In this document: piece by piece, positions 38,736 to 40,887 of the stretch | Layout: every line of letters starts with the position of its first letter | Position numbering within the stretch: position 1 is the first letter of the stretch | Origin: a virus | DNA: 64,000 nucleotides | Virus record (IMG/VR): IMGVR_UViG_3300045988_183620 | Reading direction: 5' to 3' (one strand) | Made by a program: the position numbers and the translations under genes | The notes under the pieces: model-generated | What the model was told of the DNA's origin: nothing | Databases searched by the model: none | Seen by the model: only the letters and a program-made list of their open reading frames with translations

Positions 38736-39398
38736 TTACCTATTCAGTTGTTTCCTTAATTTCTCTGTCCACTTTTCTTCTTTGTAAGTGACATAAATGA
38801 GACCTCCAATATCAGATGGCATAGTGCATCCCTGAGAGCAAATAATAGTGACGTTTTTAAGACCACATTTATGTATCATATAACCAATTTCAATAAACAC
38901 ATTGGGTCTTGCTTGCTTATATTCCTTTCCTGTGGAGTCTTTAACAAAGTCATCATCTGCCATGAGAACAACAGCTTTTTGGCATTCTTTTGATTTTTCA
39001 GAAAACGCGTTCCATACGCTTCCTGCAAATTCTGAAATATCAAGAGTCTTGGGTTCGAATCCAAGGTCCTCTTTGATAAAATCTTTTACATCAAGCATCA
39101 TATCTCTATGCAGATGCGAATATACAATAAATACGTTTTCTTTTGTCATTACAACATCGTCCCCTTTGCTGCTTTTTAATTTTTTTGCCTTTTTTATAAT
39201 TCGTTTCAAGATAGCAACCAATTCATCTGTATAATTACTGAAAGCGCCATTATGGAATTTAGTATATTTTATAGCTGTCTTTGCGTTTTCTGATAAATTG
39301 TTAGTTTCAACTAAAACATCTTCCACATCCATAGCCCATTCAGTAGGATTTGGATGCAAAGGTTTATCAATTAGCTTTTGAATTTCTGCCACACGCAT
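38736..39398 (-). CDS. COG4271-type TIR-like nucleotide-binding domain protein
   Basis: ENVFIVYSHLHRD...LMADDDF...ARPNVFIEIGYMIHKCGLKNV...PSDIGGLIY. Confidence 0.6.
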   Translation of the reverse strand: MRVAEIQKLIDKPLHPNPTEWAMDVEDVLVETNNLSENAKTAIKYTKFHNGAFSNYTDELVAILKRIIKKAKKLKSSKGDDVVMTKENVFIVYSHLHRDMMLDVKDFIKEDLGFEPKTLDISEFAGSVWNAFSEKSKECQKAVVLMADDDFVKDSTGKEYKQARPNVFIEIGYMIHKCGLKNVTIICSQGCTMPSDIGGLIYVTYKEEKWTEKLRKQLNR

Positions 39399-40887
39399 AC
39401 GTGATACCCTCTTTCATATCATTCAAAATAATGCTTTCTATTTCATCCCGCAACTCCCTGTTTACCTCCGCATTTCCCACCATATCTCTCAGCACCACGA
39501 ACAAAGCTCTCACCACAATGCCAGAGCCATGATAACGCCCAACACGCTGGTGTTTTTCAGAGTCGCAGCAGTCATGTAGCATCGTTGCTTGCCTAAACGC
39601 GACAGCCGCATTAAGTGCCATCGCAATGGGGGCTCCAATGGTAAACTCGCCATCTGAAACCAATGCGAGCTTTGCAAGCCAGATATAGGAACGGTACACA
39701 TAGAGTATCTCCTCCAGCGACAGGCTACTACAGTCTGGATTACTGTCATTGCCTTGGATGGTGACGATTACCTTCTTGAAGCCTTCTTTCGCTTGCTTAC
39801 GTTTTCCAGCCGCCGCGTCCAGACATGCGATTTGGAACATTGCCTTGCAAGAGGAATCATCCAGTTGCAGCGCTTTCTGGAAGCATTGCAAGGCCCTCTC
39901 GCCGTCTGCGTACATCTGCTTTTCGGACAAGCCGTATTGCAAGAATATATCAGCCGTAAAAGGCAACGTCTCTTTACTAGCATGACCTATGGCCTCTCGC
40001 AGGTACGGCCGTGCATCAAGAGCAAATTGTGCCTGCCCCTCGCATAACGCAGCAGCCAGGCGGTACATAGGTACGAAGTCGGGGGCTGCGCGGTAGATTT
40101 TGTTCAGCTCCGAGAGCAACTTCTCTACCGGCTCAAGAACCGAAAGTAGTCTTATCCTCAACGGGGAGTAAGTTTCCAACGCGGCCGTAAGCTCTCTTAG
40201 ATGCCTTTGGGCGTTCACATAGGCGTACACGGAATAGACGCTCGGAGGCCCTGTTCGGCTTTGCTTTTCCAGCCCAATGAAGGAATCTGCCATCTCGTTA
40301 AGGAAGCTGTCTTCTGGCAGCTTGTAATCAATCACCTGGCTGAGAGCCTTTAGTTCGCTCATTTTCAGAACCTGAAACGTACTCTTGATTTGCAAGTGCG
40401 CGAACATGTCAAACTGCCAGAAGGTCTCATTGATGTGCTGAAGACTCGCTACTGCCATCGCATCTTTTCGCCAAACGTGACGGATGATGTCATTGAGCGC
40501 TCCCTTCCCAAACTGCATTATGGAAAAACGGCCCTGTATAGCATCAGCACCATTGATAATCAGTTTTTGTTCCTTGATGCTGAAAGCGCACCACAATTCA
40601 TTCTCAGCCGGTTCTGCATCACCAGGATAGCGGTCAGTGAGAAACAGATACGCTGTCTGTTTATTCTCAGGGTGCGCCAATGTCTTATGCTGCTTTGACA
40701 TATCTACGGCCGACATCCTGGTTGTTTTGACCAGGCAGCCAACGAAGGAGAAGAATGTTCTCAAAACCTCTTGCTCTGTACCCACTTGTGGTTCATAGAA
40801 GATTTGGATTGCCGTGATGGGTTTCATTATGTTGGTCATAATTAACTGGATAAAGCGCAAAACCGCACACATGCGTTTACGAATCAC
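39367..40887 (-). CDS. hypothetical 506-aa protein (TPR-like segment), translationally coupled to the TIR-like gene
   Basis: Overlaps the downstream gene by 32 nt. Confidence 0.5.
   Translation of the reverse strand: MIRKRMCAVLRFIQLIMTNIMKPITAIQIFYEPQVGTEQEVLRTFFSFVGCLVKTTRMSAVDMSKQHKTLAHPENKQTAYLFLTDRYPGDAEPAENELWCAFSIKEQKLIINGADAIQGRFSIMQFGKGALNDIIRHVWRKDAMAVASLQHINETFWQFDMFAHLQIKSTFQVLKMSELKALSQVIDYKLPEDSFLNEMADSFIGLEKQSRTGPPSVYSVYAYVNAQRHLRELTAALETYSPLRIRLLSVLEPVEKLLSELNKIYRAAPDFVPMYRLAAALCEGQAQFALDARPYLREAIGHASKETLPFTADIFLQYGLSEKQMYADGERALQCFQKALQLDDSSCKAMFQIACLDAAAGKRKQAKEGFKKVIVTIQGNDSNPDCSSLSLEEILYVYRSYIWLAKLALVSDGEFTIGAPIAMALNAAVAFRQATMLHDCCDSEKHQRVGRYHGSGIVVRALFVVLRDMVGNAEVNRELRDEIESIILNDMKEGITYACGRNSKAN

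Follow-up and report, generated by a model that had tools for sequence, protein, structure and literature searches.

Defence and accessory hotspots of mobile elements, such as the P2/P4 hotspots, hold variable cassettes between conserved phage or plasmid genes, and a single-gene TIR cassette in a mobile-element defence hotspot is a familiar situation. Among bacterial TIR proteins, the PF10137 subfamily includes Cap12, in its TIR-STING and TIR-SAVED forms, of cyclic-oligonucleotide-based antiphage signalling systems (CBASS) and PycTIR of the pyrimidine cyclase system for antiphage resistance (Pycsar). In the TIR-STING protein SfSTING, the pocket that hydrolyses nicotinamide adenine dinucleotide (NAD+) is formed by F6, S10, R78, N80, the catalytic E84 and D110, the last contributed by the opposing TIR (PMC9402430). 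A systematic survey of Thoeris set stand-alone TIRs aside as likely NAD+-depleting effectors, not signal generators. For RADAR (restriction through an RNA-acting adenosine deaminase), the descriptions examined list only rdrAB, Csx27-associated and SLATT-associated forms (PMC9994260, PMC7699616). Here, we analyse a stretch of 64,000 nucleotides (nt) from IMG/VR virus record IMGVR_UViG_3300045988_183620 (the window), in which a gene for a TIR-like protein of 220 amino acids (aa) overlaps a larger gene, named BIG, of the tetratricopeptide repeat (TPR) type. The 220-aa gene is probably an autonomous single-gene TIR cassette, recently inserted in a defence and restriction–modification (R-M) hotspot at the 3' end of BIG. 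Swappable defence cargo enters at a point marked by an orphan copy of a RADAR-family TPR gene.

The 220-aa product is a genuine TIR-type protein of the Cap12/PycTIR subfamily. It matches Pfam PF10137 (CAP12/PycTIR TIR) with E=2.2e-23 and 83 bits (cut-off 24.7), residues 88-206 corresponding to positions 1-118 of the 119 in the profile, and the blocks VFIVYSH, ADDDF, ARPNVFIEIGY and PSDIGG are all found. With the full domain matched and the hallmark blocks present, the COG4271-type TIR-like family assignment given in an earlier note on this DNA stands. Five PADLOC models of PDC-S35 also match (E 3.5e-24 to 5e-17), the best aligning residues 43-219 with profile positions 71-251 of 264 at E=3.5e-24, and so does phrog_16442. 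An AlphaFold2 (AF2) model built from 21 homologs, with a predicted local distance difference test score (pLDDT) of 82.5, shows residues 1-75 as a four-helix N-terminal domain and residues 88-206 as a TIR/flavodoxin-like domain, joined by a disordered linker. In a Foldseek search of the PDB, TIR-STING (SfSTING, 7un8) ranks first, ahead of SARM1, MyD88 and SPARTA TIRs, and the family profile aligns with SfSTING Cap12 (7un8) at E=1.2e-5. In this profile alignment F6, S10, R78, N80, E84 and D110 of SfSTING correspond to F90, S94, R164, N166, E170 and D196 of the window protein, all invariant or nearly so across the family. Conservation of the glutamate in EIGY had been set beforehand as a test, and E170, on helix alphaC, is kept in all full-length homologs. 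Because the pocket residues match those of SfSTING, including the trans-acting aspartate (D196), we predict that the protein hydrolyses NAD+ and that it has a complete active site only in paired TIR domains.

The protein ends 14 residues past the TIR domain, and no STING, SAVED or cyclic-nucleotide-monophosphate-binding (cNMP-binding) sensor domain is detected in it with Pfam, PADLOC and NCBIfam profiles. Its N-terminal domain, with helices at 3-11, 18-31, 37-48 and 54-75 and a pLDDT of about 90, is conserved throughout the TIR family; a search with this domain alone returns six short fragments only. In P0224 and P0226 the same domain is attached to a canonical PF01582 TIR instead, which suggests a separable module, and we regard it as a candidate sensor or oligomerisation module. 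As a minimal 220-aa protein with a full TIR-STING-type pocket, the product makes a convenient construct for studying how a TIR NADase becomes active when it has no nucleotide-sensor domain.

Both open reading frames (ORFs) and the 32 nt that they share are present as the earlier note placed them, with the coordinates re-derived (Table 1). That note suggested that the two products, translationally coupled, could be a sensor/effector pair, and it made constant neighbourhood of TIR-like genes and homologs of the large gene a test. Such a two-component system, in which the TPR protein senses or regulates and the downstream gene is a swappable effector, would be in keeping with genes that overlap and are co-transcribed. 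We gathered 82 loci encoding BIG and searched each for the TIR protein. Among ~77 BIG loci, the TIR gene lies directly downstream of BIG in three only, namely the window, L006 and L007, and these three are near-identical. No TIR-like gene occurs within 8 kb in seven relatives with BIG 84-91% identical; in a clade with BIG ~55% identical there is a TIR-like gene in about eleven loci, 1-5 kb off and behind other genes. In the ~55% clade BIG is followed by a 219-aa gene, which was considered as a TIR gene and ruled out because it is not TIR-like. Gene-family layouts show synteny conserved upstream of BIG and hypervariable downstream, where the gap from BIG to the next gene varies up to ~290 nt; in the window's own clade the slot is occupied by the TIR gene, a 198-aa protein with two transmembrane segments (2-TM), or a 283-aa, 444-aa or 101-aa ORF.

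The boundaries of the exchange can be placed almost to the base. By blastn against the 84-91% relatives, the left breakpoint falls at window positions 39412-39430, within the last 15-20 codons of BIG, and homology resumes at 38583 (L008 and L017) or at 37889-37967 (other relatives); the cassette measures ~830 bp. A junction alignment and the translated tails show that, after the shared '...GAAAGCATTAT', each relative has its own BIG C-terminal tail and stop. The incoming DNA in the window has no in-frame stop for ~50 nt, and BIG therefore extends over the first 32 nt of the TIR ORF. In the model, the eight C-terminal residues of BIG (479-486) are disordered, with a pLDDT below 50. The GC content is 34% in the TIR gene, compared with 49% in both BIG and the whole window. 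As the incoming DNA gives BIG a new disordered tail and stop, the 32-nt overlap is an insertion scar at a recombination junction and no sign of joint function; the junction is different in every relative. As a conserved unit the BIG–TIR system does not exist: adjacency is restricted to the three loci above, and the recombination junction explains the overlap, so that the coupled pair is not supported.

Members of the TIR family follow at least six different upstream genes (Table 1), and no gene downstream of them is conserved. The family occurs without BIG in L083-L091, and in L088-L090 the TIR gene is present and BIG absent. In the EcoRI-type context the TIR gene lies between the methylase and a GmrSD-HNH restriction enzyme; in an integrative and conjugative element (ICE) or mobilisable element from an NCBI genome it lies near relaxases, Abi_2 and an integrase. 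Between contexts, nucleotide homology is confined to the TIR ORF alone. The TIR gene is thus a single-ORF cassette that moves independently. Given the lack of conserved pairing, the breakpoints, the foreign base composition and the mobility of the TIR ORF on its own, we favour an autonomous cassette as the likely explanation of the gene's position next to BIG.

Several altered or distant forms of the TIR gene were also seen. L088, L089 and L090 each carry a 318-aa fusion ORF of an HsdS fragment with TIR, and L036 keeps a 90-aa C-terminal remnant of the TIR cassette. Together with P0224 and P0226, these chimeric or decayed TIR ORFs are signs of frequent illegitimate recombination in the hotspots. 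Among plasmids, 952 records encode distant PF10137 'nucleotide-binding proteins', which measure 340-370 aa and have a larger N-terminal domain; most of these plasmids are from Klebsiella and Escherichia (for example NZ_CP042572.1 and NZ_CP082905.1). The genes sit in accessory regions by Abi, DUF4145 and DUF4238 genes, and the window TIR is <35% identical to the proteins from Enterobacteria plasmids.

The slot, which starts at the 3' end of BIG, is a hotspot of defence and R-M genes and is hypervariable. Its cargo comprises C5 cytosine methylases, an EcoRI-type adenine methylase, Type I HsdM/HsdS, a GmrSD_N-HNH restriction enzyme (PADLOC REase_II, E=9e-130), GIY-YIG and HNH homing endonucleases, small membrane proteins and a DUF4379 zinc-finger protein with a REase-like segment.

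In BIG, a TPR solenoid follows an N-terminal alpha/beta domain (~1-100). Pfam gives a sub-threshold TPR_2 match and no catalytic domain, Pfam and NCBIfam find TPR repeats only in 30 BIG-family members, and a BFVD structure search returns generic TPR/Sel1 matches only. The earlier description of the large protein as TPR-like and without a recognisable catalytic motif is borne out by these searches, in which TPR matches alone appear. A PADLOC CARF match (E=0.002) was set aside as noise. An exhaustive search of database representatives yields a family of 97 cluster representatives, in which identity falls as low as ~22% in matches that are still full-length. We sampled eight distant lineages (L094-96; L097-99; L100, an Oscillibacter metagenome-assembled genome (MAG); L101, a Lachnospiraceae MAG; L102; L103-104; L105-106; L107), in which tblastn with BIG gives 22-37% identity across ~490 aa (L094-L107) and phmmer matches to the TPR genes range from E 5e-85 to about 1e-13 over residues ~2-467.

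In all eight lineages a protein of ~870-960 aa follows directly after the BIG homolog, and a protein of ~920-940 aa comes next wherever the contig continues. The last protein is RdrB-like (PADLOC RdrB, E 1e-33 to 1e-36; NCBIfam RdrB, E=1.2e-54, nearly full-length; PDB EcRdrB 8fnv, E=8e-27). The middle one is a divergent RdrA (NCBIfam RdrA, E=2e-11), and in the match of its profile to EcRdrA (8hr7_A) both Walker motifs, A and B, align; the G81/K82/T83 numbering of 8hr7_A agrees with the description of RdrA in PMC9994260. Upstream of the TPR gene lies a small gene (~225-250 aa) that is weakly SLATT-like; the F1 membrane protein and the 205-aa gene upstream of BIG in the window were considered as its kin, and both are unrelated to it. 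Identities of 22-40% for the TPR protein, 30-34% for the RdrA-like and 38-47% for the RdrB-like protein show that the three larger genes co-diverge and therefore form a real operon. Judged from these homologies, gut Clostridia appear to carry a four-gene RADAR variant (SLATT-like, TPR, RdrA-like, RdrB-like; examples in Table 1). The RADAR descriptions examined (PMC9994260, PMC7699616) contain no TPR gene, and a literature search found no paper naming RdrB together with tetratricopeptide. A TPR family heading a RADAR-type operon, an architecture that we did not find described, is perhaps more important than the TIR cassette.

The window itself has no RdrA-like or RdrB-like gene in its 64 kb (tblastn), and the variable slot occupies the place of RdrA and RdrB in the related operons. 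Purifying selection acts on BIG in both orphan clades, where the ratio of non-synonymous to synonymous substitution rates (dN/dS) is 0.13-0.31, and BIG is thus a functional orphan of the RADAR-associated TPR family at the left border of the hotspot. It is truncated or split (ORFs of 299-353 aa) in L067, L069, L073 and L075, and missing from L088-L090 as noted above; despite the purifying selection, BIG is therefore dispensable for the element. A scan of GTDB genomes for the BIG family found none with close alignment and only two MAGs with distant alignment, a scan of viral contigs for distant BIG-family alignment gave no match, and neither did tblastn of BIG against phage and plasmid collections.

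Further points in favour of a BIG–TIR pair are that the BIG family directly precedes RADAR-type effector genes in every sampled distant lineage, that several slot occupants resemble single-gene effectors (2-TM proteins, nucleases, TIR) and that BIG has remained under purifying selection although RdrA and RdrB are lost. We nevertheless consider the pair unlikely, given that the slot is mostly filled by self-sufficient R-M systems, orphan methylases or homing endonucleases, that the TIR gene also has at least five contexts that lack BIG, among them loci with BIG deleted, and that both the junction-made overlap and the spacing to the next gene differ among loci. A more far-reaching idea is that the orphan BIG is a plug-in adaptor or sensor that licenses recombined effectors, including the TIR NADase, or a decoy that disarms host RADAR of the TPR-containing kind. 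This seems unlikely to us; if true, BIG would be more than a bystander at the border.

For an autonomous TIR cassette, we propose the following mode of action. The TIR protein would be kept inactive until its N-terminal four-helix domain senses an infection cue. The TIR domains would then assemble, D196 of the partner TIR completing the pocket as in TIR-STING, and E170 would hydrolyse NAD+, so that the cell is depleted and infection by competing phages or mobile elements is aborted. BIG would be no partner of the TIR protein; it would descend from the TPR gene of the four-gene RADAR variant and persist as an orphan.

Several observations speak against the autonomous cassette. Genes for NADAR and a macro domain share the strand of the TIR gene and lie less than 4 kb from it. 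IMG/VR lists related contigs as viral, and in a phage, which the carrier may be, an anti-defence role would be conceivable. The slot is exactly where the RADAR effector genes sit, making some functional tie between BIG and its follower possible. PDC-S35, on which no literature was found, is a candidate system only.

The first two of these observations, and carriage on a mobile element, would suit an anti-defence protein. It could be a sponge for nucleotide or ADP-ribose signals, as the earlier note proposed, a degrader of such signals, or an NAD-metabolising counter-measure that works together with the products of the NADAR and DarG-like macro-domain genes. We hold this to be quite unlikely. 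The complete NADase pocket, with its conserved trans-acting aspartate, argues for an enzyme rather than a passive binder. Moreover, the TIR gene sits among restriction enzymes and R-M systems, outside the conserved NADAR block, the family is catalogued among defence-island candidates and occurs on ICE and plasmids beside Abi genes, and the TIR protein has no match in 50,697 phage records. The conserved catalytic glutamate and the role of similar-sized stand-alone bacterial TIRs as Thoeris sensors raise another alternative, in which the protein is a ThsB-like signal generator and the gene for its effector lies in another part of the element or in the host. However, no neighbouring effector is conserved in any context, the protein belongs to the effector-type Cap12/PycTIR subfamily and the Thoeris survey takes stand-alone TIRs as likely NAD+-depleting effectors, all of which makes this alternative very improbable.

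The earlier note counted the large protein as 506 aa from a GTG; the ORF is present, but the product is most likely 486 aa and starts at the ATG at 40827. Three lines of evidence agree on the shorter form: the 100%-identical database cluster representative is 486 aa, BIG is called as 486 aa on two identical contigs, and homologs of the ~55%-identical clade begin at the position aligned with this ATG. The 20 extra codons of the 506-aa version contain a perfect hairpin followed by a U-run (Table 1), with an RNA folding free energy of -23.8 kcal/mol and z -3.47 compared with shuffles, which looks terminator- or attenuator-like. This hairpin leaves no room for a promoter before the BIG ATG, and regulated read-through may for this reason drive the expression of BIG and the TIR gene. 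The proposal that both genes form one operon with NADAR is unproven: the genes are co-directional, but the proposal is weakened by the terminator-like hairpin, which sits between the 205-aa gene and BIG.

Table 1. Coordinates of the features discussed; positions refer to the window unless a locus or record is named.
Feature	Position	Strand	Remarks
TIR-like gene	38736-39398	(-)	ORF, 220 aa, ATG start
N-terminal four-helix domain	39174..39398	(-)	residues 1-75 of TIR protein; AF2 model
TIR domain	38781..39137	(-)	residues 88-206; predicted catalytic set F90, S94, R164, N166, E170, D196
Large ORF	39367-40887	(-)	506 aa counted from GTG
BIG, likely gene span	39367..40827	(-)	486 aa, ATG start
Replaced segment (cassette slot)	38584..39420	.	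TIR ORF, last ~15 codons of BIG, ~150 nt 3' flank
Perfect 14-bp hairpin, then UUUUGCGCUUU (U-run)	40862-40898	(-)	between 205-aa gene and BIG ATG
Promoter-plus-hairpin module, ~105 nt	38478..38582	(-)	right slot border; repeated sequence
Further module copies	L063:13314 and 15024; L059:8894 and 10657; L089:7865 and 9623; others		
TIR gene upstream neighbours			BIG; 123-aa ORF; EcoRI-type methylase; HsdS; DUF4379 protein; small ICE ORF
HsdS-fragment/TIR fusion ORF	L088:6001-6957; L089:6001-6957; L090:6001-6957		318 aa
TIR cassette remnant	L036:14608-14880		90 aa, C-terminal
Distant plasmid PF10137 proteins	NZ_CP042572.1 63683-64783; NZ_CP082905.1 32786-33817		examples
Four-gene RADAR variant, putative	L097:6254-13946; L103:3290-11212; L105:4475-12390; L100:8953-15999		examples
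Paralog + NADAR	42584-43246 + 42160-42681 (NADAR)	(-)	
Paralog + DarG-like macro domain	35574-36173 + 35090-35569 (macro)	(-)	
203-aa protein pair	43373-43984 and 41534-42145	(-)	41% identity
106/108-aa protein pair	37505-37825 and 36993-37319	(-)	50% identity
tRNA gene array	3744-14265	(-)	22 tRNA genes

The right border of the slot is formed by a repeated module (Table 1). In order, it holds TTGCAC-N16-TGCTATAAT (an extended -10 promoter), ATCACAAnAGGTT, a 19-bp interrupted hairpin, a U-run and the ribosome-binding site AAGGAGG, which is the Shine-Dalgarno sequence for the next gene. The module occurs 27 times across 24 sources, and its copies often separate different cassettes. In RNAalifold, hairpin positions are mostly invariant or change to wobble pairs, with one compensatory pair, so that covariation lends the hairpin weak support; no Rfam family corresponds to the module. 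It may be a cassette promoter or attenuator, an RNA of ~70 nt, or a recombination substrate or linker.

The contigs related to the window, up to 370-389 kb in length, are all from human-gut metagenomes; some are in IMG/VR and none is in GTDB species genomes. Megablast of window positions 36000-44000 against phage and plasmid collections gave no match. The 22 tRNA genes of the window serve many amino acids, and the window also encodes a sortase, a Y-family polymerase, an SPFH protein and a UvrD-like helicase besides NADAR and the macro-domain genes. In relatives, a VirD4/TraG-like coupling protein is encoded just past the hotspot. There is no capsid, portal or terminase gene among 30 window ORFs. 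The carrier is clearly mobile or extrachromosomal and Gram-positive-associated, and may be a jumbo phage, a megaplasmid or a hybrid. A plasmid or ICE is suggested by the sortase, the Y-family polymerase and, in relatives, the VirD4-like gene, but the contigs are entered as viral in IMG/VR.

Three further pairs of related proteins are encoded near the hotspot (Table 1). Two paralogous proteins of ~200-220 aa (24% identity, E=8e-12) each lie directly upstream of a different ADP-ribose-removing enzyme, one of NADAR and the other of a DarG-like macro domain. This gene order resembles DarT-DarG toxin-antitoxin pairs; the paralogs match no DarT, Pfam or PADLOC model. The two 203-aa proteins and the 106/108-aa pair have no family assignment.

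Among known systems, the 220-aa gene fits PF10137 and the PDC-S35 candidate. It does not fit CBASS Cap12, Pycsar PycTIR or Thoeris ThsB, since a sensor domain, a cyclase and a linked effector are all missing. With PDC-S35, a computational candidate, it shares the nearly full-length profile match, the single-gene organisation and the defence-island setting, and it differs in being carried by a giant gut mobile element. With Cap12 TIR-STING it shares the closest fold, that of the SfSTING TIR, and an identical NADase pocket including the aspartate in trans; oligomerisation-dependent NAD+ hydrolysis is probably common to the window protein and the Cap12/PycTIR effectors. However, Cap12 carries a C-terminal STING or SAVED sensor, in place of which the window protein has the four-helix N-terminus of ~75 aa, and NCBIfam Cap12 models match the TIR portion only (31 bits, cut-off 450). 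Profile scans find no CD-NTase/cyclase domain among the window neighbours, and no neighbour is conserved in any TIR context. The PADLOC PycTIR match is likewise weak (E=2.6e-4) and limited to the TIR region; PycTIR has a cNMP-binding domain and an adjacent pyrimidine cyclase, neither of which is found for the window gene. ThsB is similar as a small stand-alone bacterial TIR protein with a catalytic glutamate, but it belongs to another TIR subfamily, and the window family has no linked ThsA-type effector in the contexts examined.

RADAR, which combines the RdrA ATPase with the RdrB adenosine deaminase, resembles the locus through the distant BIG homologs in operons with RdrA-like, RdrB-like and weakly SLATT-like genes, and differs in that both Rdr genes are missing beside the window BIG. 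With P2/P4-type hotspots the locus has in common the conserved flank gene, swaps of one to a few genes among near-identical genomes, low-GC cargo and a content of R-M, Abi and homing-endonuclease genes. It differs from them by an orphan RADAR-family TPR gene as the flank, a junction within the last codons of that gene and a module between cassettes. The example thus adds base-level cassette boundaries and a repeated promoter/hairpin linker from an uncultured giant gut element.

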